Shown here in pieces: positions 12,070-45,126 of a DNA stretch of 64,000 nt. The notes under the pieces are model-generated. The model was not told the DNA's origin and did not search any database. It worked only from the letters and a program-made list of their open reading frames with translations. Each line of letters opens with the position of its first letter. The first letter of the stretch is position 1. The position numbers and the translations under genes were made by a program. The stretch covers positions 64,001 through 128,000 of the forward strand of contig CAZFHY010000010.1 of the NCBI GenBank assembly GCA_964519305.1, in the 5' to 3' direction. The DNA comes from Candidatus Undinarchaeota archaeon. Lineage in GTDB: Archaea; SpSt-1190; JASMDC01.

Positions 12070-12083
12070 TTAGGCGAGATTAA
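12070..12083. promoter_or_regulatory. DtxR-like operator (TTAGG-CGAG-ATTAA) overlapping a TATA box
   Basis: Degenerate TTAGG-N4-CCTAA 18-31 nt upstream of ATG 12052. Confidence 0.5.
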
Positions 12084-12107
12084 ATACCTGCCCTTGGGAT
12101 TGTCGCC

Positions 12108-12449
12108 TCATCCCAGCGAGTGTACCTCGAACCAGTCCACGACCACATGAAGGTCACGGTCATGGGCATCGACGGCGTACCCGGGGATCGGGACGCCGTA
12201 CGGTCCCTTCCGAGGTGTGGTCTCCACATCGACCAGACCCCGCTCCTCAAGCTCACCGATCACTCGAACGGCCGTCTCGTAGACCTCCTGATATCGGTAC
12301 ACTGCTCCCTCGCACTGGGGCTGGCACCACATCACGCTCCGCTCGACCTTCTCAGAAAGGCCGATGAGCGCGTCATATAGCTGGATGTCTGACATATCTC
12401 CGGGATTCTCCAAATAGGAGCTCTCGAGCGGTACGACCTCTTGGACCAT
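12108..12449 (-). CDS. Hypothetical protein, paralogue 2 of a tandem triplet
   Basis: SDIQLYDAL, GAVYRYQEVY, GPYG, DRDLHV. Confidence 0.8.
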   Translation of the reverse strand: MVQEVVPLESSYLENPGDMSDIQLYDALIGLSEKVERSVMWCQPQCEGAVYRYQEVYETAVRVIGELEERGLVDVETTPRKGPYGVPIPGYAVDAHDRDLHVVVDWFEVHSLG

Positions 12450-12474
12450 GGGTGGACCCTCCCGATCCTACTGC

Positions 12475-12810
12475 CTACGTCCGGTCGGCGAAGTAGTCGA
12501 TGTCCACCGCAAGGTCGCGGTCCTTCGCTTCTACGTGTAGTGCGAAGGTGGTCGAGCCGTACGGTCCGGGTCGCGGGGTGCGCTCAACGTCCACTAGTTC
12601 CCTGGTCTCCAGCTCTCCGACCAGCTTGTTGGTCGCGCCGTAGACCTCCTGGAAGTGGTAGACCGAGCCGCCTGCCCGCGGATTGAGCAGCATCACGCTC
12701 TGCTCCATGATGCCGGGAAGCTCGTTCAACATATCGAAGAGCTCGACGTCGCTGTAGGAGGTAAGATCTCCCGTGTACGCGGCGTCGAGGTGGAGGACCT
12801 CTTGGTACAT
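12475..12810 (-). CDS. Hypothetical protein, paralogue 1 of a tandem triplet
   Basis: SDVELFDML, GSVYHFQEVY, GPYG, DRDLAVDIDYF; TTTATTAA box about 27 nt upstream. Confidence 0.8.
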   Translation of the reverse strand: MYQEVLHLDAAYTGDLTSYSDVELFDMLNELPGIMEQSVMLLNPRAGGSVYHFQEVYGATNKLVGELETRELVDVERTPRPGPYGSTTFALHVEAKDRDLAVDIDYFADRT

Positions 12811-12944
12811 GGATATCCCGCTGCCCCCAGGTCGGTTAATAAACGTTGCCTTTGCGGACGAGCATGATATCTGAGTGCACGGATTGGGAGACGCATGCGT
12901 TTCTTTAAAAGGTTACTACTGACCAATGGTAACGTTTATATATC

Positions 12945-13571
12945 ATGCCCGACTACAATATCACGATGGGGCCGACATTCCTTGATGGTGTGTCCGATGG
13001 CTATAGCGCTGTCAAGGAGAAGGTCGCCGATAACTACCACAATCATCCGGGCACATACAAGGCCGTGGGGACCGTGGCCGCGGGCGTGGGGGCCTACCTC
13101 CTTGCCAAGGAGGGCATGGACGCCATGGGATTCCAGGAGTATCTGGCCAACAGCATGCCCTGGCTCGGCCATTACGCTGATGCTGTCGCCAACGGCACCG
13201 CTGGTGTGCTCGCCGCCCTTGGGGCCAAGGCCCCTGTGGAGAAGACCATAAAGTACCTCGATGGCCAGCGGAAGCACGAGAAGGGCACGTATGCCGCTGA
13301 CGCCAGCGAGAGCGGTGCCAAGGAGGTCGCGGAGGAGATCATCGAGGGGATGGACGGCACGGACCTCGGGTGCGCCGCCCTCGGTATGCCCGTGGGGCTC
13401 ACCGACATGAAAGAGCTCTACGATGGCGTGAAGTCGGACTACCAGAAGAACCACGGCAAGGGTGTCTCGTACAAGGAGAAGGATCCAATCTTCGACGAGA
13501 ATATCCTCGGTGCCAACCCGGCACCGTACCACGTGTTCACAAAGGAGAAGAGCGGGAAGTCCGCACCGTGA
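12945..13571 (+). CDS. Hypothetical protein with Gly/Ala-rich hydrophobic segments
   Basis: Coding-like codon use; AVGTVAAGVGAYLLA and GTAGVLAALGA segments; AT-rich upstream region. Confidence 0.7.
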   Translation: MPDYNITMGPTFLDGVSDGYSAVKEKVADNYHNHPGTYKAVGTVAAGVGAYLLAKEGMDAMGFQEYLANSMPWLGHYADAVANGTAGVLAALGAKAPVEKTIKYLDGQRKHEKGTYAADASESGAKEVAEEIIEGMDGTDLGCAALGMPVGLTDMKELYDGVKSDYQKNHGKGVSYKEKDPIFDENILGANPAPYHVFTKEKSGKSAP

Positions 13572-13580
13572 GCCCGACCA

Positions 13581-19394: not shown

Positions 19395-20018
19395 TCACCC
19401 CCCCAGAATCGGCTGGACGTCCGACACCTTATCGAACGCGTACCCACCATCCTCGGGGCCCCAGACCTGTTCGTCTCGCTCGTTGTAACCCCGGTCCCAG
19501 GCGTACATCCCGCTCTCGTCGATGACAAGCTCGGTCGTGGCGTACACGGCCCCGCCATAGCTGTTCTCGCACTCCTTGCCCCGGGTACCACCCACGAAGG
19601 CGTCGTTCTCCCGGTGGAGGTAGACGACGTTCCCGCGGAAGCCCTCCAGGTCATCGGTTGTGAGGTCGCGGGCCAGCCTACCGTCCTCCCATGTGCCGAC
19701 GAGCTCCTCGCCGTCCCGGATGCGGTAGATGTGGCTCTCGAGGGTACCGTCATCACCGGAAGTCAGCCGGTACGCCCGCTGACGGTAGGGGGAGCCCTCC
19801 ATTCCGGCCATGGCCTGCTCGACGTAGACCCAGTGGTCACTGTCGCTACCACCCTCTACCTCGATGGGGAGCATCTTGAGGCGGATGTCGTAGTAGCTGG
19901 GGTCCTTTTCGGACTGTCGCTGGCTGGAGAACTCGCCCGTCATCCACGCATGGAGCGTGTCGAGGTCGTTCCTCCCTTCGTTCACTTCAGGCACCATGGT
20001 CCCGATATTCCGTGCCAC
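19395..20018 (-). CDS. CpcT/CpeT lyase-family (lipocalin-like) protein
   Basis: WMTGEFSSQRQ, YVEQA, PYRQR.Y and WDRG...EQVWG signatures. Confidence 0.8.
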   Translation of the reverse strand: MARNIGTMVPEVNEGRNDLDTLHAWMTGEFSSQRQSEKDPSYYDIRLKMLPIEVEGGSDSDHWVYVEQAMAGMEGSPYRQRAYRLTSGDDGTLESHIYRIRDGEELVGTWEDGRLARDLTTDDLEGFRGNVVYLHRENDAFVGGTRGKECENSYGGAVYATTELVIDESGMYAWDRGYNERDEQVWGPEDGGYAFDKVSDVQPILGG

Positions 20019-20022
20019 TCGA

Positions 20023-20403
20023 TCAGAACCTTATCCTGAAGAGCGGGACCGCATGCGGGGCCCGGGGGTCGCTGTCCCACCTGTAGACTTCCAGGTCCAC
20101 GCCGGGCGACTCGCCCCTAGTGATATCGAGGTCCACTCCGATGCCCTCTTGTGGCATGTTGTCCATGTCGATCGTCTCGAGGTCGCTGGCATACACCGGG
20201 GCCTCGGCCTTCTCGACATAGGTGTTCGTCTCTTGCGTCATTACGCTCCCGGCCATGGCACCGACGCCCACCAGGAGACCGGCCGCAAGAGCACCTCCGG
20301 CCAGACCGTAGGTGGAAAGGTCGTCTGCCGCAGTATATCCGTCGGCCATCACCGCCGAGGCGGTTCCGGTCGTCTCAAGTTCTTCCATGTACATCATGAT
20401 CAC
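20023..20403 (-). CDS. Small membrane-anchored protein with an ELET-type acidic leader
   Basis: MYMEELETTG..ADGY..ADDL followed by a Gly/Ala TM; GGAGTGA RBS-like sequence. Confidence 0.7.
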   Translation of the reverse strand: MIMMYMEELETTGTASAVMADGYTAADDLSTYGLAGGALAAGLLVGVGAMAGSVMTQETNTYVEKAEAPVYASDLETIDMDNMPQEGIGVDLDITRGESPGVDLEVYRWDSDPRAPHAVPLFRIRF

Positions 20404-20440
20404 TCCTTTCAGTTCTTACAGTATGATATCGTTCGCGGCC

Positions 20441-20980
20441 TCATCGGATACGGAAGTCGAATCCGGGGATACGGATCCGGATGTCAACATCGCTCTGCTC
20501 GTAGGAGGGGTGGCTGTCAGGGGCCAAAGGGTCCGAACCGAACCCGAGCTCGTCCATGTCGGTGTAGCCGTCGTGATCGGTGTCGAACCAGTTCGGGTCC
20601 GTACCGAGCTCCATGACCTCAACACGGTCACTGATGCCGTCAGCGTCGGAGTCCCATTCCAACGTGCTCGTCCTGTACACACTGAGCTCCTTCGAGTCAG
20701 CGAGGCCGTCGTTGTCCGCGTCGGGTACGCCCCGGGCGTAGTCCATGCTGTCGATGAGCCCATCGCCGTCAGTGTCGGCGCTGAAGGGGTTGTTCCCGGT
20801 GACGATATCCTTGGCGGTCGAGTAGCCATCCTTGTCGAAGTCTACCGCGAGCACACCCGTGAGGGCGCCCACGGCTCCCAGGAGGGCGAGCCCCCGACCG
20901 TCCATATCGTCCGTGCTGCTGTATGCGTCGGCGGCCGATGCGCCGTAGCTTCCGTTCGTCTCAAGCTCGTATGCGATCAT
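20441..20980 (-). CDS. ELET-leader protein with Ca-binding TSP3-like (DxDxDG) repeats
   Basis: Start at ATG 20980 (MIAYELETNG); DTDGDGL, DADNDGL, DSDADGI and DTDHDGY repeats with GxDP. Confidence 0.75.
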   Translation of the reverse strand: MIAYELETNGSYGASAADAYSSTDDMDGRGLALLGAVGALTGVLAVDFDKDGYSTAKDIVTGNNPFSADTDGDGLIDSMDYARGVPDADNDGLADSKELSVYRTSTLEWDSDADGISDRVEVMELGTDPNWFDTDHDGYTDMDELGFGSDPLAPDSHPSYEQSDVDIRIRIPGFDFRIR

Positions 20981-21017
20981 GTCCGGCCCTGCCCCTTGTC
21001 CCCTTTTTATACCTTTC

Positions 21018-21049
21018 TTTGGTATACCTAATATATTGGGACTGCCTAA
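21018..21049. promoter_or_regulatory. Tandem DtxR-like operators
   Basis: TTTGG-TATA-CCTAA (21018-21031) and TTGGG-ACTG-CCTAA (21036-21049), 18 bp period. Confidence 0.6.
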
Positions 21050-21130
21050 TATATAGGGCTCTGAGCACAGCTTACCGACATACACAGTAATGTTAGGGGA
21101 TACGAATACATGCAGAGCCGATGAACGGCA

Positions 21131-22102
21131 TCATGCGTCTTCGGAGAGGGCCCAGCACCGGTCGAAGTACTCGATGAGCACCGGGATCAGAACGTTGCCT
21201 GTGGAGCTATGCCACCAGGGAGCGTCGTCGCCAAGCTCCACATCGATGAACGGCAGGCCCTCGGCCTTGAAGGCCAGATCCCGAACACGCCCTTCGGCCA
21301 TCGAATCGCCTGAGATCACCAGCTCACCATCCCCCCATGAGACAGATGCCCGCTTGACGGGGAAGTCGATCTCAATGAAGGGGAGCACCGGACGCTTCTC
21401 CGCGATGTAATAGGTCGCCGAGGCGGGCTCGTGGATTTCGTTGTCGTATTTCACGTCGAATACCTCGGTCACCCTGCCCTTCGGCCCGCGATACAGGAAC
21501 GACATGGACATGTGCGAGTCGCCATCCCGATCCCTGAATAAGTGATGGAACTCGTGGACCGTGAAGGAACCCTTGGTATAGCTGGTCGCCCGTAGGGGGA
21601 CCGCTGGGTGATTCACCAGGTTCTGGACTAGGGGTACACCCAGAGCAGGATGGCGCTCAAGGCCTCGTGCCACTTTCTCCGGATCACGGAGCCGCCAGCG
21701 CGCATAGGATGGCTGGGCGGCGTGCCGCAGCTTGAATGTGACGTCGTAACCATATATCCCATCGGTCTCGTCGTCCACGGCGACCAGATAGTGATGATAG
21801 GGCGATGGGAACACGGTGCGCTCCTCGACCAGATATGCGTTCTCGATGCCCGCGGCCTTGGCGAGCGAGAGCCAGACCAGGGATTGCTCAAGGCAGTTCC
21901 CCTCGCCTTGGGCAACGCACTCTTCCACTGAGCGGAGCCGGTACGGATCATCTGTCTTCAGCAGCTCCTCGTAGCCGTATTGGACGTTCTCCAAGACCCA
22001 GTCGTAGATGATATCTGCCTTCTCCCCATCGTCCATGTCCTGTGTAACAAGGGATTCGATGATTGGTTTGACTGACTCGGGATCCAGGTACTGTCCGTCC
22101 AA
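21131..22102 (-). CDS. Transglutaminase-like (Cys-His-Asp) protein
   Basis: IYDWV, GEGNCLEQS, HHY and YDVT motifs. Confidence 0.75.
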   Translation of the reverse strand: MDGQYLDPESVKPIIESLVTQDMDDGEKADIIYDWVLENVQYGYEELLKTDDPYRLRSVEECVAQGEGNCLEQSLVWLSLAKAAGIENAYLVEERTVFPSPYHHYLVAVDDETDGIYGYDVTFKLRHAAQPSYARWRLRDPEKVARGLERHPALGVPLVQNLVNHPAVPLRATSYTKGSFTVHEFHHLFRDRDGDSHMSMSFLYRGPKGRVTEVFDVKYDNEIHEPASATYYIAEKRPVLPFIEIDFPVKRASVSWGDGELVISGDSMAEGRVRDLAFKAEGLPFIDVELGDDAPWWHSSTGNVLIPVLIEYFDRCWALSEDA

Positions 22103-22131
22103 GGCGGTCTTAAAAATTTAGGCGTGCTTAA
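22100..22131. promoter_or_regulatory. Tandem DtxR-like operators overlapping the start of the transglutaminase-like gene
   Basis: CAAGG-CGGT-CTTAA (22100-22113) and TTAGG-CGTG-CTTAA (22118-22131), 18 bp period. Confidence 0.55.
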
Positions 22132-22174
22132 TAATATTCCCTTTGGACACGTCGACTGTGTTCTGGTGCTCAAG

Positions 22175-22210
22175 GAAAAGTTTAAGTATGCCTAACTTAG
22201 GTGGCCCTAA
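22175..22210 (+). promoter_or_regulatory. BRE/TATA with tandem DtxR-like operators
   Basis: GAAAAG-TTTAAGTA promoter; TTAAG-TATG-CCTAA (22182-22195) and perfect TTAGG-TGGC-CCTAA (22197-22210). Confidence 0.7.
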
Positions 22211-22259
22211 CTCAAACCGCAAGGAACGCGGACCGGATGATTATCGAAGGTGATCTGAA

Positions 22260-22715
22260 ATGTTCGAAATGGAACTCGAGTCGGAAGGGTACGGTGCTAC
22301 CAACACCACGCAGGCCTATGGACAGGTGGATGACCTGAACCTCAGGGGTGCCGCCGTGGGTGCAGCTATCGGGGGTGCCGTCGGATTTGGCATGGCAGGC
22401 CTCGCCGGTTACGGCCTGGCAAACCACATCAGTGATCACTATCTTCAGGACGTCGGCCCTCTGCCGCAAGTGCTCCTTGAGGTGGACGCTACCATCGCCG
22501 GCCTCTACGTGCTCGGCGTGCCATTCGCTATCGGTGGCGCGCTGACCGCTGGTGCAGCCGGTGCTACCTCCACCCTATTCAGGGGCGAGGAGGAGGCACC
22601 TAACGATGGTGCGGCCTACGACTGGAACGGTGAGCAGGACCTCGACCGTGTCCCCCTCCGGCGCCAGGTACGGTACACGTATCCTCGCAGAGACGCGAAC
22701 GAACTGGACTGGTAA
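22260..22715 (+). CDS. Glycine-zipper membrane protein with an ELES-type acidic leader
   Basis: MFEMELESEG..QAY..DDL, then GAAVGAAIGGAVGFG and a second TM; AAGGTGA RBS. Confidence 0.72.
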   Translation: MFEMELESEGYGATNTTQAYGQVDDLNLRGAAVGAAIGGAVGFGMAGLAGYGLANHISDHYLQDVGPLPQVLLEVDATIAGLYVLGVPFAIGGALTAGAAGATSTLFRGEEEAPNDGAAYDWNGEQDLDRVPLRRQVRYTYPRRDANELDW

Positions 22716-22725
22716 CGGGATACCT

Positions 22726-24279: not shown

Positions 24280-24282
24280 TAC

Positions 24283-34500: not shown

Positions 34501-35457
34501 CACGAGGGCCAGCGCCTCGCTGGGTGACGCGCCGAGCTTCTGGGCCTTGTCCAGCTGGTGCCGCAACTCCTTCATCCCGAGGTCGATGCCGATCCTTGCG
34601 TTCCCCTTGCACTTGCAGTACAGCGGATGGCCCTTCTGCACCCGACACGGGTAGTCCACCTGCATGATGCCACCGCAGTTCGCACTGGGATTGCACGTCG
34701 ACTCCTGCATCATGAGCGCGGTCGCCTGGAGGGGGTCGACGCGCCCTGCGAGGCCGTGCTTGGCCAGATGCTCCTTGACGAGCCCGAGGTACGGTGCACA
34801 CCTCCCAAGGCTGGTCTGGGGCAGCTTGCTCAGGTCGCCGCCCTCGCAGCTAGGAAGCTCGCCCTTGCCCTCATTCTGATCTCCCCCCTCGTCCTTCTTC
34901 TCGTCACCCTTGCACGTCTTGAGATCCTTGCGCTCGCACGTCTGCTTGACAGCGCGGTCGCACACGGTAGGACCGAACCCCGTATCCGCGGCCACCTTGG
35001 CTGCCGTGAGACCGGCGAGGGCCGGGTCACAGCCATCGAGCCCCAGCGCCTTCACCTTCTGGAGGGCGGCCTGGCATCCCTGGCACTGCTTGGCGAACCC
35101 CGCCTCTATCAGAGCGAGGTTGCCTGAGAGCGCTTTATAGTGCCCCGCCATCTTGTCGATCGCCCCTGCCATGTCATTGAGGTATCCGGGCATGTTCCGG
35201 TAGGTCCGCCCGCACTGGACGTTCAGGTCAGAGACGGACATTGGGCCCGGGCCGGCACCAGGGTCACCGGGCGCTTTCCCGGAAACATCGGCGCGTGTGA
35301 ACTCCCCGCTCCCACTGTCGGCATTCTTCAACGAGCCCTGCTCGTGGCCGTCAGTGATATCCTTGCGCGTCTGGCCGGCCGCTGTGACGAACGGTAGGAG
35401 CGCGATGACAAGTAGGAGCGTCAGGAGCACTGCTGCGCGACGCTCGCGGACCGCCAT
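31501..35457 (-). CDS. Giant secreted Cys-rich protein with a lytic transglycosylase (SLT-like) domain and a C-terminal Ig/CARDB-like region
   Basis: Signal peptide; ALMMQES..N..CGGIMQV..FGFNRG; paralogous to 35461-41103. Confidence 0.78.
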   Translation of the reverse strand: MAVRERRAAVLLTLLLVIALLPFVTAAGQTRKDITDGHEQGSLKNADSGSGEFTRADVSGKAPGDPGAGPGPMSVSDLNVQCGRTYRNMPGYLNDMAGAIDKMAGHYKALSGNLALIEAGFAKQCQGCQAALQKVKALGLDGCDPALAGLTAAKVAADTGFGPTVCDRAVKQTCERKDLKTCKGDEKKDEGGDQNEGKGELPSCEGGDLSKLPQTSLGRCAPYLGLVKEHLAKHGLAGRVDPLQATALMMQESTCNPSANCGGIMQVDYPCRVQKGHPLYCKCKGNARIGIDLGMKELRHQLDKAQKLGASPSEALALVEFGFNRGGSAMTRAISNRKRGMGLYDAMMASCVHYYGPGTRWNNANYYCRKKGMGPRYPELIAERLERACREMGGKPNPMTAGKGSYPSDTGSSAATPPPPGEAEKNAAKCPLCAVVPCAYADACEVGGPSSSGEKCDASKGCGEVTKVERKDGVHTCKAGRGKDKSCSQPKATLVTAPSRTVITVPAMLAACQQALADVKDACTVDGSASLGGATLDPCSLQQRVSSDRGKLDGLTGNLGPVSSGLRGVAGDVGTAMRTGQPVAGAQSRIDALVNTASANAKDGAGLAAFQTDITKLVTLTKGPMARDVGGGIGGGGWGQRMQAAGGWLQKRLGMAPAHAATLDQAAEHVRKARGLMVATVGYRGDKEWSKYCGRFNLKDEGKDKQAGSSSGGKSPQQVKQTVQRIVKDAPKAGCGKPPGRCESELKGGAQLQVRETDTWAKGQRMALGNLARLDPNKLFLNMDQCFRYSTPRGVGDRRRQYRRGGRPSSSSSGSSGGGTKPDSSPGSSTAPRNRPAPRPMEFIRKMVPSWLKIPTLNILRVNPTAVRTFHAGDLVRVYAEVENTGDGTFELGRANARLRVIGECDCSACTGGGSCPCTCEEGFIELGAIRMPLLPPGESWDYLSDPFTLEHGLSGTTIQLEIDVLDTEGEGVAWADGVLSHIVEIGDAAVVHGSFVDAELGTPISEGNPGMEVAGRVRISNTKAPVTAEVYAVLGAGQELAGSRTVTVLNGTGEHIELMTEPVALTEDHLGWPLQIGVRLLDSDGQPVLDMVLPEKGFDHDSCTGPEMTAGCLYERERAVPEFPQGHIEVKEGRARVTKAAFLDSDGMAMDAAAVREPVTFEVTVENSASTMFAGTIEAWAQLADGREVTNSRVTQDVTGLEHNDVFALQGPVFGAFNDPPGGSTMGLHVIVRDRDGTTWLDEDMDSTAHPYSRLELEEGVWEGEGPRQPIDASFTVGDCYLEVSCDACLPTCTLTIEPESCTLVTDKCECTCTTRR

Positions 35458-35460
35458 CGA

Positions 35461-38400
35461 TCATCCTCTCCGTGGTGCACAAGTGCATCCGCACGAACGT
35501 GTCTCGATAGTACAATCGTCGTTGTCGATATGGAGCTCGCAGGTGGGAAGACAGCCCTCGCACACGACCTCGATCCGGCATCCGCCCATGTCGAACGTGG
35601 CGTCTATGGTCTGACGCGCAGCGTCCTCGAGCTCGATCTTCTCTCCCATAGTGACCCAGGCATTAGGGTAGAGCGAGGGATCTGCATCATCGTCGAGCCA
35701 TAGGGCGCCGTCCCCGTCCGTGGCGGTGACGTGCAGCCCCATCGCGTTACCTCTTCCGGTATCCCCGAACGCGCCGAACACCGACGAGCGGAGCTTGATG
35801 GTACCCCCTCGTTCCAGCTCAGTGACGTCCTCTCGCACGTGTCCGCCGACGACGTTCATGCCATACTCGAGCCGTGAGGCTGCCTCGATGCTCCCGGAGA
35901 ACGGGACGTGGGCGAGGTTCCTGACATCGATCTCGAACGACACGGGCTGGCGCAGTACCGCCGTGGTGATGGGCTGGCCGTCAGCGTCGCGGTACACCGC
36001 TTCGGCGATCCTCAGACGGGGCCGCTTCACCTCGAGGTAGGCCAGGGGATAGCCGAGCTTGACGCGGGAGCGCTCCTGGACGCACCAAGAGGTCATGAGG
36101 CGTCCTGTGCACCTCTCCGGATCGAATCCCTGCTCGTCTAAGATCATGTCCAGGAGTAGGTCGCCGGCCCCGTCGGTGACACGGACGCCTATATGGAGGA
36201 CCCAGCCGAGCTGGTCTTCCATTAGCTGGAACGGCGCGGTCTCCACCACTAGTTCCTCACCAGGTGCATCGATCGTCCTTGTCGCGTGCGTTCCCGCCAG
36301 CTCCTGTGATGCACCGATGACCGCGTATGTTTCCACCGATATCGGGAACACCTTGGTCGTCACGACCAGTCGGCCGACGACCTGCATCCCGGGATTGCCG
36401 TCGGTCACCTCCTCGTCACGGTCCGTGGCCACGAATGCACCATGGGTGATGCTCACCTCGCCCATTTCGACTACGTGCGTCAGCGGTCCGGCGGCAGTGG
36501 CGACACCCTCGCCCTCATCATCGAACACTTCCAGCTGGAGCTGTACGGTGGCGTTGGCCATCCCCGGATCTAGGAGGATGGGATCGGAGATATACGCCCA
36601 TGAGTCACCAGGGGCCAGCGGACGGATGGGGATGTCCCGCAGCTCGATGATCTGCTCCTCGCACTCGCATCCGCACTCGTACGACTCGGGGCATGTCGGA
36701 CAGTCGCACTCACCGATGATCCTGAGCTGTGCCTTCGCGCGTCCCGTGAAGGGATAATCTCCGGTGTTGTTGACCACAGCACGGATCCTGACGCTCTCGT
36801 TGGCATAGAAGGTCAGGGACTCCTCGTCGTCGCGGAGGAGAGCGACGTCTGACACGACGACCTCGGAAGCAGTGGCCTTGCAGAGCTTAGCGCACTCCTT
36901 CTCGTTCCCGCCCGAGCTCGTGCAGTTTTCCATGCACGCGATGGTGGCGTTGGCCGGATCGCATCCCTTGAAGCAACGATCACGGCCGTCCCTGTCGTTC
37001 GGGAATCGCACGTTGCAGTCGGTCACGCACGCAGGATCCCTCCCGCACTCGACGAGGCAGTCATGCTGGATATCTAGGTCGTCCTCGCCCAGGCATCGCT
37101 CCTCGCAGGCGACCTGCACCTCGTCGCACTTCCGCATACATGTCCGTGCGTCGCCCGAGCTGGTCCCGAACTTGATGATGCACCCCTCCTCGCAGACTAT
37201 GTCAGCCCCTCCGTCACCAAGGCCCACGCACGCTTCCAGACAGGGGCGGAGAAGGACAGGATCAGGCCGCTCTCGTGCGCACGTGTCCTCACACGTCGAG
37301 TTGCTGGGATCACATTCGCGCATGCAGTCAAGGGCCACACTGACATCGTTCTCGGAAAGGCAGTCCTGTTTGCACTCGATACTATCGTTGAGCTCCTCCT
37401 CGGGCTCGGGTGTCGGTGTCGGCATCACCGAGGGCGAGGGGGAAGGTGTGACCGTAGCGTTGGGTGTCGGGCTGGGAGTGACCGTGGCGTTGGGTGTAGG
37501 CGAGGGTGTCGGGGACGGCGTTGGTGTGGGGGTTGCCGTGACGTTCCCCATGTTGCACTTCTTGATGCACTCACGTGCTGCTGTGCTGTTATCCTTGTGC
37601 TGGTCCAGACACGCCTCATCGCACGGCACCTCACGCGGCTCGCACTCGATCTTGCCCACAGGACGCTCGGCAAGCCCCTCAAGGCAGCATAGTCCGGTTT
37701 CGGACGTCCTCCCGACGCAAACGTCGTAGGTCATGCCCGCGGCCCTTATAGGCGTCTGACAAACGCTCGCTCCGCTCGTGGGCCCGGAGGGGGCATTATA
37801 GGATGGCGGCGGGAGCGTTCCTGTCCCAGGCTGGCCTGCAGCACCTCCCATCCCCTCCGGTGCACAGCACTCCCTGGCCAGCTCAAGCGCCTCCTGTCCC
37901 CAGTTTATTGGACAGTTCATGTCGATGGGGTGGTGACCGCTCCCGGTATGGCAAACGCACAGGCTGAGCTCGGGGTGACAGTGGGAGCCTTTCGCTCCGA
38001 AACATAGCTGGCACGCCTCCTGACACTGTCCCGGGGACAGCTGTGATTCATCCGGAGGTGTCGGCGGGCGATGGGTCTTGTATCTGAAGCAGTCCTGCAT
38101 GTCCATGAAGAGCGTGTCCGGGTCCAGGCGGGCAAGGTTCCGGAGCGCTGCGACGTGCCCGGACGGCCACGAGTCGACGTTCAGGTCCAGCAGCTCCGCA
38201 CCGTCCACCAGCTCGGACTCGCACCGGCCCGGTGCTTGGCCGTACCCGGCGACAGGTGCATCGCTGGTGATACGTCGTGACAGCTGGCGGAGTTCGGGTA
38301 CCTGCTTGCTCCCACCGGACGATGTGGACGTACCGCCGCTCGCTCGCTCCTTCGCCACAGCGGTCCGGTTCTTGACGCTGTACCGCCCGCAGAAGCCGTC

Positions 38401-41103
38401 CCATGGACCTGACCCACGGTAACCCATCCGCGCGCTCTGGAGCTCACTCTTGACGACTATCCCGATGTCCTCGCGTGACGCATCCTGGCCGGTCGTACTG
38501 TCGCTGACATCGTACCGTCGCCACGAGCTGGAAACCGGGGATGAGCTGCCGGTCGTGGGGCCTGCGTTGGCGTCAGTGTACCCTATCGCATCGCTGTTAC
38601 CTGGTGTCCTAGGACTGGCAACGTCGCGGATGATTGGGTCCCCGGTGAGGGTGACGAGGGTGGTGAGCTCGTACTGGAACGTTGTGACCGGCGTGTTGGC
38701 GCCCGCTTCCAGCGTCCCGACCAGGTCGTTCACGTGCTGCTCGAGCTCGGGCGGCGGGGCACCGGTCCGCATGGAACCGCGCACGTCGCTGGCGAGCGTG
38801 CGCAGTTGTCGTGCGAGCACCGTCATCATCTGCGTCCGCTGGTCGAGGGCCGCCATGTTCTTACCAATAATCTCTGCCAGCGAGCAGGGATCGAGCACAC
38901 GCTCCCCGATGACGTCGGACCCTCCGGCGGAGCACGCGTCATGGAGGTCCGCCATGGCACGCTGACATGCCACGAGCACGGACGGTAGGGTGATGGTCGC
39001 CCGGGAGGAGAGGGTGCGCAGGGTCGCGTTCGCGATGTCGCAGTCGCCCTTGCACTTCGAGGGGCAGGTCGCATCCTTGCGGATGCAGCAGTCGCCCTGC
39101 TCCCCGGGCTTGACGACGCACTTGTAGTTGCCTGTTTTGTCGTCCTTCTCCGCCCGCAGGACCTCACCGCACGTGTCCTTCGTGTCGAGGGTCCCGCCCT
39201 CCCCGGGATTGCCGATCCTGCATTCCATCCCGTACGAGCAGGGCACCGCCGCGCAGAGCGGGCACGTCACCGACTCGTCGACGCTCTTGGCCTTTGTTAT
39301 CTTGTGGACAGGACCGCTCGTGCCATGGGTCGCCGGGCCGCCATGAGCTGGTGTCCCCCCTATCTGCCGGCAGGCCTCTTCGAACCGCTCCTGGATGATC
39401 TCCGGGTAGCGGGGACCGTGACCCTTCTTCCGACAGTAGTAGTCGGCATCGTTCCACTTGGTTCCCGGGCCGTAGTACTTCTCGCAGGACCGCATCATGG
39501 CGTCGTAGGTCGACGCACCGCCCTTGCTGTACCCGATGGCGCTCTCCATGGCGCCCATGCCGCGATTGTACCCGAACTGGACGAATGTGAGCGCATCCGA
39601 CTGGGACGCTCCCATCGACTGTGCCTTGTTGAGGTTGGCCGCCAGCTCCTTGAGCCCCAGGTCGATGCCCAGGTCCGCGTTGCCCTTGCACGCGCAGTAT
39701 AGCGGTGACGATTTTTCCACCCGGCACGGGTAGTCCACCTGCATGATGCCACCGCAGTTCACGCTCGGGTTGCAGCTGGACTCCTGCATCATCAATGCGG
39801 CTACCTGGAGCGGGTCGATGCGACCGTGGAGGCCGTGCTTGCCCATGTACTTGTCGACGATGTCCATATAGGGAGCGCAGGCCCCGAGGCTGGTCGAACC
39901 GAGCTTGCTCATGTCACCGCCCTGACATCCATAGGCACCACTGGCCTCTTCCGAGCCGTCGTCACCAGTACTTTCACCCGAACTATCCGCGCCTCCACTG
40001 AAGAACATGTCCCTGATCTCCAATGGGTCCATGTACTGCCCGGGCCCCTGGGGACGGGCTATGAGGATGCCGAAGTGTAGGTGAGGGACCTTGTTGCCCA
40101 GACCGACGGTCCCCACGTTCGTCCCCTTTGTGACATGCCTGCCACCGCTCCCATCGGGGACGTGGAACGCCAGGCTCTTCATATGGGTGTACCATGCGAA
40201 ATAGTACGTCTTCCCCTTGTTCTTGATGGGCTTGTCGAACTTGAGGAGGATGCTGTTGGGCGTGTCCGGGGGCGTGGTCCATGTCGTATGGCCGCGCTCG
40301 CTGTAGATGAGCGTACCATCAGCGACGGCATAGGCGGGGGTGCCTGCATGGACGTGGATGTCGATGCCCCGATGCGCCCCTGGGGCACCGTACGTCTTCC
40401 ACTGGGATTGGCTCGTCCCCTTTATGGGCATATGGAGGTCGCCACTTGAGCCCTGGCCGCCTGAGGGTGACTGCTGCTCGCTCCCGGTGGTGTCACTTCC
40501 ACTTCCATCGCCATCACCCTCGCTCGCGCTATCGTCCTCCTCGATCTCCCGCTCGTCGTCAGGACGGCACTCCTTGAGCCCCTTCACCTCGCACTTGGCC
40601 TGCGTCACCATATGGCAGAGCGCAGGGCCGACCCCCTCGCCCGCGACCTGTGCGGCAGTGAGCCCCTCGCCACCAAGACGCGGATCGCACTCACCAAGCC
40701 CGAGCCCCTTCACCTGCTGGATCGCCTTCTGGCACACGAGGCACTGCTGGACGAACCCGTCCTGGGCGATGAGCATGTTAGTTGAAATCGTCCTGTAATG
40801 CCAGGCCATCTGCTCGTACGCGGACGCCATGGCATCAAGGTAATCGGCCATGTTATCGAACACTTGGCCCGTACAGGGGATTGCGAGGTTGGAGATTGGC
40901 GGACCGGCGGCCCCGGAGCCGCCGATGCCATCGAGGTTGAGGCCGCCGATCTCGCTGGTGGAAACCTCCTCGTTACCCGCCGTGACGTTCGTGAGCTCCC
41001 CCTGCTCATGTCCGTCCTCTACCTCGAGGCTCGTGACCGAAAGGGCGGGTGTGATGAGTAGGAGGACTATAATGAACGCATACAGTGCCTTTGTTTCACC
41101 CAT
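35461..41103 (-). CDS. Giant secreted protein with M23 peptidase, SLT-like domain, PT linker, CxxxC repeats and Ig/CARDB-like C-terminus
   Basis: Signal peptide; M23 HRGID..GTPAYAVADG..YTHM..HLHFG; ALMMQES..GIMQV..YNRG; start ATG 41103 or GTG 41112. Confidence 0.82.
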   Translation of the reverse strand: MGETKALYAFIIVLLLITPALSVTSLEVEDGHEQGELTNVTAGNEEVSTSEIGGLNLDGIGGSGAAGPPISNLAIPCTGQVFDNMADYLDAMASAYEQMAWHYRTISTNMLIAQDGFVQQCLVCQKAIQQVKGLGLGECDPRLGGEGLTAAQVAGEGVGPALCHMVTQAKCEVKGLKECRPDDEREIEEDDSASEGDGDGSGSDTTGSEQQSPSGGQGSSGDLHMPIKGTSQSQWKTYGAPGAHRGIDIHVHAGTPAYAVADGTLIYSERGHTTWTTPPDTPNSILLKFDKPIKNKGKTYYFAWYTHMKSLAFHVPDGSGGRHVTKGTNVGTVGLGNKVPHLHFGILIARPQGPGQYMDPLEIRDMFFSGGADSSGESTGDDGSEEASGAYGCQGGDMSKLGSTSLGACAPYMDIVDKYMGKHGLHGRIDPLQVAALMMQESSCNPSVNCGGIMQVDYPCRVEKSSPLYCACKGNADLGIDLGLKELAANLNKAQSMGASQSDALTFVQFGYNRGMGAMESAIGYSKGGASTYDAMMRSCEKYYGPGTKWNDADYYCRKKGHGPRYPEIIQERFEEACRQIGGTPAHGGPATHGTSGPVHKITKAKSVDESVTCPLCAAVPCSYGMECRIGNPGEGGTLDTKDTCGEVLRAEKDDKTGNYKCVVKPGEQGDCCIRKDATCPSKCKGDCDIANATLRTLSSRATITLPSVLVACQRAMADLHDACSAGGSDVIGERVLDPCSLAEIIGKNMAALDQRTQMMTVLARQLRTLASDVRGSMRTGAPPPELEQHVNDLVGTLEAGANTPVTTFQYELTTLVTLTGDPIIRDVASPRTPGNSDAIGYTDANAGPTTGSSSPVSSSWRRYDVSDSTTGQDASREDIGIVVKSELQSARMGYRGSGPWDGFCGRYSVKNRTAVAKERASGGTSTSSGGSKQVPELRQLSRRITSDAPVAGYGQAPGRCESELVDGAELLDLNVDSWPSGHVAALRNLARLDPDTLFMDMQDCFRYKTHRPPTPPDESQLSPGQCQEACQLCFGAKGSHCHPELSLCVCHTGSGHHPIDMNCPINWGQEALELARECCAPEGMGGAAGQPGTGTLPPPSYNAPSGPTSGASVCQTPIRAAGMTYDVCVGRTSETGLCCLEGLAERPVGKIECEPREVPCDEACLDQHKDNSTAARECIKKCNMGNVTATPTPTPSPTPSPTPNATVTPSPTPNATVTPSPSPSVMPTPTPEPEEELNDSIECKQDCLSENDVSVALDCMRECDPSNSTCEDTCARERPDPVLLRPCLEACVGLGDGGADIVCEEGCIIKFGTSSGDARTCMRKCDEVQVACEERCLGEDDLDIQHDCLVECGRDPACVTDCNVRFPNDRDGRDRCFKGCDPANATIACMENCTSSGGNEKECAKLCKATASEVVVSDVALLRDDEESLTFYANESVRIRAVVNNTGDYPFTGRAKAQLRIIGECDCPTCPESYECGCECEEQIIELRDIPIRPLAPGDSWAYISDPILLDPGMANATVQLQLEVFDDEGEGVATAAGPLTHVVEMGEVSITHGAFVATDRDEEVTDGNPGMQVVGRLVVTTKVFPISVETYAVIGASQELAGTHATRTIDAPGEELVVETAPFQLMEDQLGWVLHIGVRVTDGAGDLLLDMILDEQGFDPERCTGRLMTSWCVQERSRVKLGYPLAYLEVKRPRLRIAEAVYRDADGQPITTAVLRQPVSFEIDVRNLAHVPFSGSIEAASRLEYGMNVVGGHVREDVTELERGGTIKLRSSVFGAFGDTGRGNAMGLHVTATDGDGALWLDDDADPSLYPNAWVTMGEKIELEDAARQTIDATFDMGGCRIEVVCEGCLPTCELHIDNDDCTIETRSCGCTCAPRRG
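36880..37630 (-). repeat. Tandem C-x3-C-x(8-12)-C-x3-C repeats and a Pro/Thr linker in the 1883-aa protein
   Basis: About 8 units (CDEAC..CIKKC, CKQDC..CMREC, CEDTC..CLEAC, etc.); TPTPSPTPNAT repeats at about 37400-37545. Confidence 0.8.
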
Positions 41104-41128
41104 TTTCACCACGCTTCCAGTACACTAT

Positions 41129-41147
41129 GTCACTACTTACTAGTGAC
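41129..41147. promoter_or_regulatory. Inverted repeat GTCACTA-N5-TAGTGAC, candidate operator
   Basis: Perfect 7-bp arms between the TATATATA box (41173-41180) and the giant gene start; near-copy at 56111-56129. Confidence 0.5.
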
Positions 41148-41298
41148 TGTTACTATATTATCTGTCGTTTCCTATATATACGGCTTTCGGTACCGTCATG
41201 TTCGAACAGGTGATCAGTCCCCGTACTACACCTATTCCTATCACTTGACAGCCCATAACCGGGCTATCTTTAAACACCTACTGCGTCGGGCCAAGGCC

Positions 41299-42813
41299 TC
41301 ACTGTGATGGTGGAGAGACACCGTTCATCAGGTAGAAGAACAGGAGCATCTCATAGAGCGCCTGGTTCTCAGTGCTCGAGGGATGGTTCTCATCGGCCAT
41401 GGTGTCGTGGAACTCGTCCCAGCGGGTGTCGCGGGCAAAGGGCGTCGCCTTGTATGCCGATGTGGCCTTATCGAACTCCTCCTGCATCCTTGGCAGGTAG
41501 ATGTGGAGCCCGTGGGCGCGCTCGTGGAACTCGCTGTTCCTGTTGTCGAGAACAGCATCCTCAACGGTGGTGAGCACGTCCTTGGCGGTCGCTCGTACGG
41601 CACCTTCGATGTTACCGTTGGCCACGATCTTGTGTGCGAGATCATAGACGTCGACCATGGAAGTGCCGCCGAAGTACGTGTTCGTCAGCTGGTGTGTAGC
41701 GAAGAATACTTCCTTGAGCTCGGTGTACGGCGTATCGTACTCGATGATGGCCCCTGCCATCCGGTCGATGGCCTCGGCCACGGCGGGCATCTTCTCGATG
41801 TCGATTGCCGACATGGTACTGACACCGTCCTTCTCCGATGCGACCTCGTCCACTACGAGAAGGGCCATCTGACGGGGCGTGAGCTCCGTTCCAGCGGTTT
41901 GCTTCTCCATCATGATGAGTGACGCCTCGTTGAGCAGGCCCTCGTAGTCCCAACCCCCTGCATTGATGACCGACTCACTGGCGACCATGTAGCGAGCCAC
42001 ACCGCGGACGGCGTAGGCGCCTTCCGTGGAGGCCATGAGGCATGCATCGAAGCCCAGAACGTCGATCTTCTCGCCCGTGGTCCGCTGGACGGAGGTGAGC
42101 GCTTGTCGGATGCCCTCCCAGCTCAGGGGTCCTGAATCCGCCGACTGGTCGTCAATGACACCCAACCATCCTGCACCATGGTCGGCGATGATGAGCATGT
42201 AGTTCTCGGCAGGGTAGTTCTTCACACCCCAGGAGACGAAGTCATAGAGGGTCTTCGGGCTGGCCATGTCGACCTGTCCGAGCTCGCCCAGCACCGGCGA
42301 TGTGACGATATCATCCTTACCCTCCTTCTGGATGAGGTAGCGTCGGGCCCCGCTCCAGGAGTCGCCTTCGTTCGTGGTGATGTTGTTGCCACGGTCGTAC
42401 TGTACAACGACGTTCATCTGGTCCGTGGAACCGACGGCCTCCATCTCGTCGATGTTCTGATACATATGGGTCGAGAGGTTGTTGTCGGCGGCGGAGTAGA
42501 CGAGGACCGTCCACGGCTTCTCTTGGGCGATGCGCTCGCGCTGCCCAGGAACACCCGCCATCTCGGTCGGCAGGGATACCTGATAGCCGTCGATGTTGAA
42601 CTGTGAACCTTGCTCCAGGGAGGTGTACGAGCCCTGCTCGAGCACGTAGGCGGGCCGTTCGGACATCCTGCCTGATGTAATGAGATCATCGATGGCCCCC
42701 GTAGGTGGTGCTATATCTGATGCAAGACCCATGCCTCCGTAGAGGAGGCCGAGCCCCAAGCTAGCGACCCTTTGTGCCGTCCGTCCGATATCATGATTAG
42801 CATCGTTCTCCAT
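41299..42813 (-). CDS. Clostripain-family (C11) cysteine peptidase 1
   Basis: WTVLVYSAADNNL, DHGAGW (His), GFDACLM (Cys), VASE; start ATG 42813 after an AAGGTGA RBS. Confidence 0.9.
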   Translation of the reverse strand: MENDANHDIGRTAQRVASLGLGLLYGGMGLASDIAPPTGAIDDLITSGRMSERPAYVLEQGSYTSLEQGSQFNIDGYQVSLPTEMAGVPGQRERIAQEKPWTVLVYSAADNNLSTHMYQNIDEMEAVGSTDQMNVVVQYDRGNNITTNEGDSWSGARRYLIQKEGKDDIVTSPVLGELGQVDMASPKTLYDFVSWGVKNYPAENYMLIIADHGAGWLGVIDDQSADSGPLSWEGIRQALTSVQRTTGEKIDVLGFDACLMASTEGAYAVRGVARYMVASESVINAGGWDYEGLLNEASLIMMEKQTAGTELTPRQMALLVVDEVASEKDGVSTMSAIDIEKMPAVAEAIDRMAGAIIEYDTPYTELKEVFFATHQLTNTYFGGTSMVDVYDLAHKIVANGNIEGAVRATAKDVLTTVEDAVLDNRNSEFHERAHGLHIYLPRMQEEFDKATSAYKATPFARDTRWDEFHDTMADENHPSSTENQALYEMLLFFYLMNGVSPPSQ

Positions 42814-42979
42814 GGTTGTCACCTTCAGTTCTTGTTCACGTTCAGCAAGTTCTCTACGAACCGTGCTGCCTCTGAAACGGCAGCGATACCGCTGTAGAGA
42901 ATACCTAGCCCGATAATCTTGGAGCGTCGCCCCGTCAACTTTGGACAATACATTTCTACGCGCTTCATGGCCGTCACCT

Positions 42980-44092
42980 TCACCTCTCGTTCACGTCCAG
43001 CAGATGATCCACGAACCGCGCCACCGCAGCGTCCATGGCGACCCTGCGGGTGCCGGTGTCACCTGACATGGGATCGGTGGGGTCGAGCAGGTGATGGCCC
43101 CCAGGGACGAGCAAGAGCTCAGCATGTCCTCCGGAGGCCTGATGGATCGACTCTGCGTTGTACATGGGCACCACGTCGTCATCAGTGCCGTGAATGATCG
43201 TGTACGGGACCTTGATATCTGCTGCCATCTCCTTGAGGTTTGGTTGTGCCGGGTCCATAATCTCGTTCACAAGGCACCCGACGGAGTCCACCTGGATGAA
43301 CTCCTTTCCGAAGGGGATGTGTAGGATACGAGAGAGACCGGATTGGTACAGGAAGCGGGAGAGCTTGCCGTCCGGGTGGTCCATGGTGGAATCGCGCATG
43401 CTGGTGGGCGCGCCCCAGGTCACTAGGACCTCGGGATCGGCACCCTCGGCAACGCTGCGTGCCGTCAGGTAGCCGCCCATGCTGTGACCGAATAGCCCGA
43501 CCTTGCCACCGCCGAGCTGTTCGCGCAGGTAGTCCACGGCGAAGTCAGCGTCATTGGCCATGCTCTGGAGGTGGAAGTCGTCCGTTGATGTGGCGTGTGC
43601 CCGCTGGTCGTAGAGGAGGACGGTGAACCCCTCGTCGTAGAGCATCTGTGCGAGGTCGTAGTGGTTCGCGCGTGTTCCATTGTAGCCATGGGCGATCACG
43701 ACACCAGCACCATTAGCGTTCGGCGGGGACCAGACCTCGCCGTGGATTGTGACGCCGTTCGCATCGAGGTGCACCTGCTCGACCATGTAACCGGCCGGGA
43801 CGGCCAGGGGATCGGCCTGCTGGTGCTCGACCTGTGCGACCGCCTCTGGCAGGTTGACCGTGTATCCGTCGACGGTAAGCTCCTGTCCGGCCTGGACGTC
43901 CGGGTGCTCTACTATATAGGCAGGTGTCTCGGCGTACATACCGTCATGTCCAGGGACCATCGGTCCGGGCTCTGTCACCATCGACCCAGCGCATGACGCG
44001 GCCATGAGCGCTGCCATCCCCGCTCCGAGATACCGCCTGAACTGCGGGCGGTTCTCCCCCGCGTCATCCTGGTACGATACGCCTTCAACCAT
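42980..44092 (-). CDS. Alpha/beta hydrolase with an acidic leader and PAY..YxVxLP module
   Basis: IAHG, GHSMGG, HGTDDDVVP and GGHH motifs. Confidence 0.87.
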   Translation of the reverse strand: MVEGVSYQDDAGENRPQFRRYLGAGMAALMAASCAGSMVTEPGPMVPGHDGMYAETPAYIVEHPDVQAGQELTVDGYTVNLPEAVAQVEHQQADPLAVPAGYMVEQVHLDANGVTIHGEVWSPPNANGAGVVIAHGYNGTRANHYDLAQMLYDEGFTVLLYDQRAHATSTDDFHLQSMANDADFAVDYLREQLGGGKVGLFGHSMGGYLTARSVAEGADPEVLVTWGAPTSMRDSTMDHPDGKLSRFLYQSGLSRILHIPFGKEFIQVDSVGCLVNEIMDPAQPNLKEMAADIKVPYTIIHGTDDDVVPMYNAESIHQASGGHAELLLVPGGHHLLDPTDPMSGDTGTRRVAMDAAVARFVDHLLDVNER

Positions 44093-44122
44093 TAGGTCTG
44101 CCTAAGCTTAAGGGTCACCTAA
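44092..44122. promoter_or_regulatory. Tandem DtxR-like operators
   Basis: Perfect TTAGG-TCTG-CCTAA (44092-44105) and TAAGG-GTCA-CCTAA (44109-44122), spanning from the start codon to the TATA. Confidence 0.72.
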
Positions 44123-44310
44123 TAAATGTTTCCTTTCTCCCAAGAGAAGCTACCATTAAAGCTAACAGGTGACCAAATTGTGGCCTGGGGCGGCGGCCGG
44201 GCATGGCATGCCCAGGTGACGTGGTGGCCACCGGCCCCAGACCTATGGTGTCCCCCATGGGGACAATCCCCTATCCTGTTCTCCTTTCTACTGTTCCTGA
44301 CTGTAGCGAT

Positions 44311-45093
44311 TCACGCCACGAGGGCCTTCTCGAGATCGTCGATGATGGCCTCTTTCCTTTCCCGTTCGCGCCAGAGACTGTTGAGCTGTCGTTCGCGGGC
44401 CGCTTCGCCCACGACGGGCAGCTTGGTGAGCGTGGATTCATCGATGCGCTCACGGGTTTCGGTCATCGTGTCGTCGAGCTTGGATCGCAGCGCCGTATAG
44501 GTGTCTGCACTGGTGAGGTCGAACACATCCGTGGTGTTCCCCCTCCTGTTAGCATAACCCTCAAGATGGTCGATGAGGTCGAAGAGGACCTGTTCCTGAC
44601 CGGCGAACTGGAGAGCAAGCCGTACGCGTTCCGTGTGCGCAAGACCATCGAGGGTCTCGGTGATGGTCTCGGGGAGCGCACCGTACTCGGCTACGTTGAA
44701 CGAGTGGTCGTCCGTGTAACGCGTCCCGATGTAGTGGTCTGTGCTGACGTCCTTGGTCACCAGGTTCCGCGTCTCGATGACCTCGTACCGCGAACATAGT
44801 AGTCCGCTCACGAGATCACTGTCGAACCGGGCTTGGAGCCCCAGCTCGGCGGCCCGCTCCTCGACCTCGACCAACGTCCGCTCAGCATCGTCCTTGGTCT
44901 GACCATAGACGTGGACCTCTTCACAATAGCTCCCGTCGCTCCACAGCTCGTGGATCTCGGTGAAGTGGTAGTTAGTCCTCAGACGGTTCTCGTACGCGAC
45001 CTCGGCACCGACGGCGCCAAGGAACTCGCAGGTCCCGGGGCTCACTTGCCCTTCGTAGGGCATGGTCACCCTCTCTTCGTTCTCGATTATCAT
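44311..45093 (-). CDS. Hypothetical acidic protein with a C-terminal coiled coil
   Basis: Own TATA plus operators; coding-like codon use; no family recognised. Confidence 0.7.
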   Translation of the reverse strand: MIIENEERVTMPYEGQVSPGTCEFLGAVGAEVAYENRLRTNYHFTEIHELWSDGSYCEEVHVYGQTKDDAERTLVEVEERAAELGLQARFDSDLVSGLLCSRYEVIETRNLVTKDVSTDHYIGTRYTDDHSFNVAEYGALPETITETLDGLAHTERVRLALQFAGQEQVLFDLIDHLEGYANRRGNTTDVFDLTSADTYTALRSKLDDTMTETRERIDESTLTKLPVVGEAARERQLNSLWRERERKEAIIDDLEKALVA

Positions 45094-45094
45094 T

Positions 45095-45126
45095 TTAGAC
45101 GCGCCTAAACGTTTAGGTCGTCCTTA
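45095..45126. promoter_or_regulatory. Tandem DtxR-like operators
   Basis: TTAGA-CGCG-CCTAA (45095-45108) and TTAGG-TCGT-CCTTA (45113-45126), 18 bp period, between the start and the TATA. Confidence 0.7.

Follow-up and report, generated by a model that had tools for sequence, protein, structure and literature searches.

Palindromic DtxR-type boxes at promoters of accessory genes in a Candidatus Undinarchaeota genome

We describe a recurrent palindromic promoter element in a stretch of 64,000 nucleotides from Candidatus Undinarchaeota archaeon (GenBank assembly GCA_964519305.1, contig CAZFHY010000010.1, positions 64,001 to 128,000 of the forward strand), hereafter the window, and in the genome from which it derives (3.63 Mb, termed G000), of which the window makes up 1.8%. 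The element is a 14-base palindrome, TTAGG-N4-CCTAA, and the boxes that it forms are quite probably operators of the sole DtxR-family regulator with a helix-turn-helix (HTH) domain encoded in this genome, a two-domain, MntR/TroR-like protein on contig C6. Sequence comparison supports a DtxR-type operator reading, and it is also from sequence that we infer binding, repression, the metal signal, transcription starts and operon extents. Both the box and the regulator family are known; what is unusual is a regulon made up mostly of accessory, strain-specific genes instead of metal homeostasis genes.

Abundance, placement and promoter context of the boxes

An earlier analysis of the window, made from its letters alone (the sequence-only reading), had reported operators of this type at seven or more promoters, and our searches bear this out: ten sites with at most one mismatch occur in the window, all where they had been reported. 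These account for ten of the 12 positions originally listed, while the remaining two, at 12070 and 22100, are weaker, with 2 and 3 mismatches, respectively; the pair spacings of 18, 18, 15, 17 and 18 bp are as described. The housekeeping flanks had been said to lack full sites, and outside 12-45 kb we find only 2-mismatch matches, inside coding sequence. The exact palindrome TTAGGNNNNCCTAA occurs twice in the window (at 22197 and 44092) against 0.01 expected, with two or more copies in none of 100 shuffles. At up to two mismatches there are 15 window sites against 8.6 +/- 2.8 expected and, since 3 of 100 shuffles get to 15, this loose count by itself barely exceeds chance.

Genome-wide, the motif has 3 exact matches, and 30 sites when up to one mismatch is allowed, 10 of these in the window. 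Most of the 30 (26) are non-coding or lie within 90 nt of the start of an open reading frame (ORF), and 21 fall into 10 clusters comprising 11 adjacent pairs at distances of 14-30 bp. The eight control palindromes, matched for composition, yielded 9-100 sites each, with no adjacent pair for any of them and 0-3 sites in the window, and the reversed palindrome has as many exact matches in the genome (3) as the real motif. The total number of sites is unexceptional; their placement, pairing and clustering are exceptional.

A position weight matrix (PWM) was derived from 24 sites (column counts T24 T22 A16 G22 G22 - N4 - C23 C23 T23 A21 A23). By this matrix 18 sites of the genome reach at least 16 bits, where a Markov-simulated genome has 1, and low-scoring matches are rarer in the real genome than in the simulated one. 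The motif is not equally common at unrelated promoters, which would have spoken against an operator: an upstream score of at least 14 is reached in just 14 of 2919 genes (crude gene calls), and a general promoter element is thereby ruled out. The paralogues or N-terminal look-alikes of target genes that were checked all lack a box (13 of 13, best upstream score 5.1 or lower), so the boxes are no by-product of gene families, and their hitch-hiking with a duplicated family was rejected. An RNA element was likewise rejected, given the lack of any Rfam family in the window and predicted folds that vary inconsistently from site to site (z-scores of -0.3 to -2.7).

The position of the boxes on or beside TATA elements, put forward in the sequence-only reading, recurs in all 15 gene-oriented promoters, where an A/T-rich, TATA-like run adjoins the gene-distal edge of a box (TTTA-TTAGG, TATA-TTAGG, AATA-TAAGG and similar). 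With this run fused to the distal edge, one box fills the stretch from TATA to start. Gaps between box and start codon range from -3 to 49 nt: they measure 9-18 nt at seven genes (including feoAB, three genes for small membrane proteins and those starting at 26671 and 12052), about 0 nt at the genes starting at 44092, 45093 and 22102, and 29-49 nt at five genes, four of which have a Shine-Dalgarno (SD)-like AGGTGA in the gap. The short gaps fit leaderless or short-leader archaeal promoters. Neighbouring boxes lie 15, 17, 18, 25 or 26 bp apart, never 5, and such offsets would put adjacent dimers on different faces of the helix. Archaeal repressors seated on the B recognition element (BRE) and TATA box, or on the start site, keep off TBP (the TATA-binding protein) and TFB (transcription factor B), or the polymerase.

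The TATA frame suits this genome, which encodes three TBPs, archaeal ribosomal proteins, prefoldin and NAC, and in which no sigma-70 region 2 was found; together with the very acidic character of the encoded proteins, these genes indicate a salt-adapted archaeon to which a TATA-box reading applies. A bacterial host, such as a cyanobacterium or Salinibacter, in which the A/T runs would be -10 boxes, an idea prompted by the SecA and CpeT-like genes of the window, is ruled out by TBP, the lack of sigma-70 and the archaeal ribosomal proteins.

The candidate regulator and conservation of the boxes

No DtxR gene lies within the window, as had been noted, and the family member to be sought elsewhere in the genome is encoded by a 170-aa ORF on C6. 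It is the only protein in the genome with both PF01325, the HTH domain (67.2 bits), and PF02742, the domain for dimerisation and metal binding (53.5 bits), each above its cut-off; a second, weaker match to PF01325, on C1, belongs to an Lrp/AsnC protein and was dismissed as a second DtxR. The regulator gene comes last in an operon that begins with a feoA-feoB fusion and continues with a gene for a 214-aa DtxR_C+FeoA protein without recognisable HTH. The feoAB ATG is preceded, at a distance of 9 nt, by a tandem box spaced by 18 bp, divergent from a gene for a small 2x[4Fe-4S] ferredoxin; the two box copies score only 13-14 bits. Among solved structures the regulator matches MntR best (E 1e-21), then DtxR/IdeR (E 1e-8), with residues 22-139 most similar to Bacillus subtilis MntR (PDB 1on1 and others). 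In the alignment to that protein, what we take to be the MntR ligands D8, E11, H77 and H103 are kept, and two of the six presumed Mn ligands, E99 and E102, are not opposite acidic residues in the C6 regulator. The HTH-bearing protein, which lacks C-x-x-E-H and has a cysteine tail, and its HTH-less neighbour, which has the ligands, are adjacent DtxR paralogues, both conserved in the congeneric genome G001, and may form a split pair of sensor and DNA-binder.

The phylum comparison set consists of 17 genomes; G000 and G001 measure 3.6-3.8 Mb and the 15 others 0.6-1.2 Mb. The feo operon recurs in G001 together with its tandem box, which is equally far from the start. Exact boxes are also present in G012 and G006, two small genomes from the same class, at the start of dtxR and in the interval between this gene and feoA, and within the recognition helix, (V/I)(K/R)PPSVTEML, the string PPSVTEML is identical in all three regulators. 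At the single box of a conserved C1 operon (C1:208258) both half-sites are kept in G001, and three of the four spacer bases differ. Together, the feo box of G001, the boxes of the two small genomes, the shared helix and the C1 half-sites make the DtxR reading well supported at sequence level. The inverted repeat with A/T-rich flanks agrees with operators of the haloarchaeal TroR/DtxR type, and the core, which had been assigned to the DtxR family from the outset, is identical to the motif of TroR, a DtxR-family protein, obtained by chromatin immunoprecipitation sequencing (ChIP-seq) in Haloferax volcanii (PMC10783522).

Candidate regulon and strain-specific segments

Annotation of the window and of the genome confirms that the genes downstream of the boxes encode hydrolases and uncharacterised proteins, not metal transporters; the genome has no Nramp gene, and iron uptake and storage do not dominate the candidate regulon. 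The targets comprise five paralogous small acidic Gly-zipper membrane proteins (the one compared with the Atlas gave no usable match), a HExxH and DUF1838 pair, a transglutaminase-like protein, an alpha/beta hydrolase followed by a C11 peptidase and giant proteins, a 260-aa orphan family and further uncharacterised proteins. Their positions in the window are collected in Table 1, with those of the other features discussed here.

Table 1. Boxes, downstream genes, segments differing from G001 and other features. Plain numbers are window positions; prefixed ones are contig positions.
Feature	Position (strand)	Match and spacing	Context
Weak single box TTAGGcgagATTAA	12070..12083	2 mismatches; PWM 12.8	17 nt upstream of ATG of gene 11630-12052 (-)
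Tandem boxes TTTGGtataCCTAA + TTGGGactgCCTAA	21018..21049	18 bp apart; PWM 18.5 and 14.5	TATA-like spacer; 37 nt upstream of ATG 20980 (-)
TSP3-repeat small membrane protein	20441-20980 (-)		downstream of 21018 boxes
126-aa uncharacterised protein + CpeT/DUF1001-like protein	within 19395..20980 (-)		downstream of 21018 boxes
Pair CAAGGcggtCTTAA + TTAGGcgtgCTTAA	22100..22131	3 and 1 mismatches; 18 bp apart	at start of transglutaminase-like gene
Transglutaminase-like gene	21131-22102 (-)		
Tandem boxes TTAAGtatgCCTAA + TTAGGtggcCCTAA	22182..22210	15 bp apart	49 nt upstream of ATG 22260 (+)
151-aa acidic Gly-zipper membrane protein, FG-GAP repeat protein (ORF to 24279), 253-aa uncharacterised protein	22260..25044 (+)		
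Single box TTAGGcttaCCTTA	26685..26698	PWM 17.6	13 nt upstream of ATG 26671 (-)
271-aa protein with HELVH (HExxH) motif, then DUF1838 protein	25051..26671 (-)		
Tandem boxes TTAGGtctgCCTAA (exact) + TAAGGgtcaCCTAA	44092..44122	17 bp apart; PWM 19.9 and 16.6	adjoin ATG 44092 (-)
Alpha/beta hydrolase, RR + lipobox-like (Tat/lipobox-like) N-terminus	42980-44092 (-)		signal read from sequence
C11 peptidase	41299-42948 (-)		second gene downstream of 44092 boxes
1883-aa protein with M23 domain; 1318-, 976- and 609-aa uncharacterised proteins	same-strand array 26741..44092 (-)		
Tandem boxes TTAGAcgcgCCTAA + TTAGGtcgtCCTTA	45095..45126	18 bp apart	1 nt from ATG 45093 (-)
260-aa orphan protein	44311..45093 (-)		downstream of 45095 boxes
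Segment absent from G001	19398..26738		four window box clusters; matches to syntenic contig G001:C41 stop at 19397, resume at 26738
Segment absent from G001	41032..45182		two box clusters; ~275 bp instead on syntenic contig of G001
Segment absent/replaced in G001	C9:48167-48821		
Segment absent/replaced in G001	C9:62977-63497		
Segment absent/replaced in G001	C7:120112-121443		beside tRNA-Glu gene
Segment absent/replaced in G001	C8:10144-10710		
Segment absent/replaced in G001	C26:1-1410		
tRNA-Glu(CTC)	G000:C7:120024-120101		directly abuts the C7 segment
Shared acidic N-terminus	22260, 20980, 26671; C9:48367; C8:10267; C7:121308; C26:1311; C1:208228 and others		
Adjacent DtxR paralogues	G000:C6:78436-79543 (-)		
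Rnf genes	5471-10562		
M14 carboxypeptidase	13581-14912 (-)		
Bacterial-type SecA, full-length, 821 aa	16857-19322 (-)		
C11 (clostripain-family) peptidase genes, six paralogues	41299-53932 (-)		five in a row (46490-53932)
TrmB-family regulator gene	56182-56973		
Four tandem GCS2-type carboxylate-amine ligase paralogues	G000:C1:208312-212726 (-)		just upstream of C1 box operon
Box array on IMG/VR viral contig	L101 1485-1640	15/18 bp periods alternating	at least seven TTAGG-N4-CCTAA-like boxes

Several of these promoters show further elements. The 12070 site, whose counterpart in G001, TAAGGcttgCTCAA, is weaker, is a marginal member of the set. A further sequence, TATAAAAA, lies between the 21018 boxes and their ATG, and the transcription unit that starts there may read on into SecA, a 622-aa uncharacterised protein and the M14 carboxypeptidase, an extent suggested by the common strand and the short gaps. 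An SD-like GAAGGTGATC stands between the 22182 boxes and ATG 22260, AATATAA lies directly at the gene-distal edge of the 26685 box, and TTTATTA and TTATTTAA are fused to the distal boxes of the 44092 and 45095 pairs, respectively. The proteins encoded at 25051..26671 have four paralogues elsewhere in the genome, all without a box. The array at 26741..44092 would be co-transcribed from the 44092 promoter, and only its first two genes lie inside the G000-specific segment.

Comparison with G001 places 11 box clusters in seven segments of G000 that are absent or replaced there (Table 1), often 15-60 nt from the segment boundary; two single boxes on C2 were left out of this comparison. The alternative content of G001 at these segments has no boxes, and neither an integrase nor a shared boundary repeat was seen at them. 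Both genomes have the feo pair and the C1 box in common, as well as, in degraded form, the 12070 site. At the C7 tRNA-Glu locus a stretch of 85 bp recurs with 79-88% identity at three other sites of G000 and three of G001, and these repeats could be remnants of integration sites.

The 260-aa orphan family has only 12 clusters among 1.84 billion representatives (relatives P0002-P0013), and the start at 45093 is backed by an N-terminal pattern, M-x8-MPYE, that is conserved among them. A paralogue at C7:120580-121308 likewise has tandem boxes. The AlphaFold (AF2) model is confident (predicted local distance difference test, pLDDT, 91.7). Foldseek returned nothing at E <=0.001 for it, VIA-align reached Z <=6.3 and matched C-terminal helices only, and no PDB match was informative; the best Atlas match, at 0.82, is a lead only. 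The family has no match in Pfam, NCBIfam or PHROGs and none in the viral scan, and one short cyanobacterial match in the scan of genome contigs was disregarded.

An acidic N-terminus, M(Y/F)(D/E)x(D/E)LE(T/S)(D/E)G, is common to many proteins encoded behind boxes and to at least eight whose genes have no box, and a Gly-rich membrane helix often comes next. This N-terminus may serve in targeting or anchoring, as a signal that has so far escaped recognition. The SecA of the window scores 1000.7 bits against the NCBIfam SecA equivalog (cut-off 814), is encoded on the same strand as the 622-aa protein and the M14 carboxypeptidase, and is present in G001 at 89% DNA identity. To our knowledge SecA is not expected in archaea; assembly contamination seems an unlikely source, since TrmB, Rnf and the box regulon are on the same contig. 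On C28, three M14 carboxypeptidase genes in tandem lie near a weak box (PWM 12.4). Besides Rnf, the large genomes carry ApbE, MtrH, CofC/CofD, form-III-like RuBisCO and GH57 genes. For the array on the viral contig listed in Table 1, an origin of the iteron type or a sink for a regulator is conceivable.

Competing explanations and comparison with known systems

As operators of the C6 regulator, the palindromes would each take up one dimer. Most promoters have two or three boxes, 15-26 bp apart; one of them would lie between TATA and start, and a second would cover the BRE/TATA side or else the start site. Bound to its co-repressor, for which Fe2+ or a related divalent metal is the likeliest candidate, the regulator would block TBP/TFB or RNA polymerase, and loss of the signal would turn the box promoters on together with feoAB.

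Several observations weigh against this proposal. Among some 16 box-bearing regions a classical metal function appears only at feoAB (with the divergent ferredoxin), and neither the one Peripla_BP_2 gene nor either ferritin-family gene has a box (best upstream score 2.7 or lower). The regulon of TroR consists mainly of siderophore synthesis, iron ABC transporters and dpsA (PMC10783522), whereas feoAB is the only metal locus here. Apart from the feo pair, G001 has just a few single boxes, and homologues of the 260-aa protein in metagenomes (three loci) have ordinary leaders and in no case a tandem box; together with the box-less paralogues in G000, this confines the link between boxes and accessory genes to one genome. 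The regulator falls below the cut-offs of both NCBIfam MntR equivalogs (NF003025, 106.9 vs 138; NF008273, 106.1 vs 153). At the position of C/E-x-x-E-H, which we take to be the canonical primary-site metal ligands of the DtxR family, it reads AEVGHH, where its relatives in G012 and G006 read C-K/R-L-E-H; loss of this motif makes metal sensing doubtful and the co-repressor uncertain. Finally, at 21018 a good TATA box, TATAAAAA, stands downstream of the boxes, an arrangement that could serve activation.

Some of these points would be accommodated if the same protein acted through the same boxes with another signal or sign, classical metal sensing having been lost and some promoters perhaps being activated, a variant that we regard as unlikely but worth keeping in view. 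The signal could then be redox state or metal perceived through the Cys-rich tail, or could arise in a hetero-oligomer with the HTH-less neighbour. An altered signal would suit the AEVGHH sequence and the C-terminal C-x4-C-x7-C tail, both conserved in G001, and also the 214-aa neighbour, which reads C-R-F-E-H and thus keeps the ligand pattern next to a FeoA/SH3-like domain. Linkage to the feoAB operon and the conserved feo box point instead to iron, and four MntR ligand positions are kept, an assignment based on alignment. An altered sign is made conceivable by the 21018 arrangement and by the activation of dpsA by TroR in Hfx. volcanii (PMC10783522).

That the boxes of the strain-specific segments, or cassettes, are read by some other factor, for instance a cassette-borne one, their likeness to DtxR boxes being coincidence or mimicry, appears improbable to us. 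The top-scoring boxes (16-20 bits) do lie on cassette promoters, above the feo boxes in score, the cassettes are strain-specific, and many cassette proteins belong to no known family; yet autoregulation commonly works through weak sites, the cassette proteins that were scanned yielded no DNA-binding domain, and half-sites, spacing and pairing are as at feoAB and at dtxR of cassette-free relatives. We give very little credence to boxes without regulatory function, whether as scars of recombination or insertion, repeats of mobile cassettes or RNA hairpins in the transcript. Their concentration in segments missing from G001, often close to a boundary, the tRNA-Glu gene abutting one such segment and the viral contig with its own array count in favour of such an origin. 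The fixed relation of the boxes to TATA-like runs and start codons speaks for a regulatory role, as does their presence at feoAB and C1, loci that are not mobile and are conserved in G001; moreover, no integrase or common boundary repeat was seen at the segments, Rfam gives no match and the folds differ between sites.

Operators of the C6 regulator thus remain our preferred reading, and on it a wider proposal can be built, which we advance tentatively. A strain-specific arsenal of secreted or membrane hydrolases, among them the alpha/beta hydrolase, the C11, HExxH and transglutaminase-like proteins and M23-bearing giants, with the bacterial-type SecA operon possibly included, and of small acidic membrane proteins may be wired to a DtxR-type repressor, each cassette bringing its own operator-bearing, near-leaderless promoter, such that starvation for the metal sensed, or another signal perceived through a remodelled sensor site, would fire feoAB together with a lytic or scavenging programme. 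In a lineage without experimental genetics, one regulator and about 16 promoters offer a testable handle on orphan genes, peptidases and giant proteins, and may show how newly acquired cassettes are recruited to a regulatory circuit already in place. A regulator with an altered ligand motif beside an HTH-less paralogue that keeps it also poses a small puzzle for the DtxR field.

The closest parallel to the boxes is the TroR motif of Haloferax volcanii, TTTAGGC-NNN-CCTAAAANAN, which was present in all 32 intergenic ChIP-seq peaks used for motif discovery and often occurs in multiple copies per promoter, either of two copies being enough for iron-dependent repression (PMC10783522). Half-sites and spacing agree, TTTAGGC-NNN-CCTAAA being TTAGG-N4-CCTAA with A/T flanks, and so do the presence of several boxes per promoter next to the TATA box, the lack of an SH3 extension in the regulator and a DtxR-family gene among the targets. 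The tandem motifs described there lie ~30 bp apart and ~100 nt upstream of starts (PMC10783522), whereas here they lie 15-26 bp apart and 0-49 nt upstream. The present host is not a member of the Halobacteria, and the two regulators are likened at the level of the DtxR family.

With B. subtilis MntR the C6 regulator shares the two-domain layout and a PSSVTKM-like recognition helix, and it differs in scoring below both equivalog cut-offs and in the two Mn-ligand positions that are not acidic. The 19-bp tox/iron box of bacterial DtxR and IdeR interleaves two dimer sites, offset by 5 bp. Its TTAGG/CCTAA pentamers recur here and the 14-bp unit is contained in the 19-bp consensus, but the boxes described here are separate palindromes 15-26 bp apart, and the C6 regulator is closer to MntR and has no SH3-like third domain. 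DtxR controls the phage-borne diphtheria tox gene, and the two systems are alike in their logic, a chromosomal metal repressor presiding over horizontally acquired genes for secreted proteins; if the wider proposal is true, the regulon described here would match, in an archaeon, the control that DtxR exerts over the gene for diphtheria toxin.

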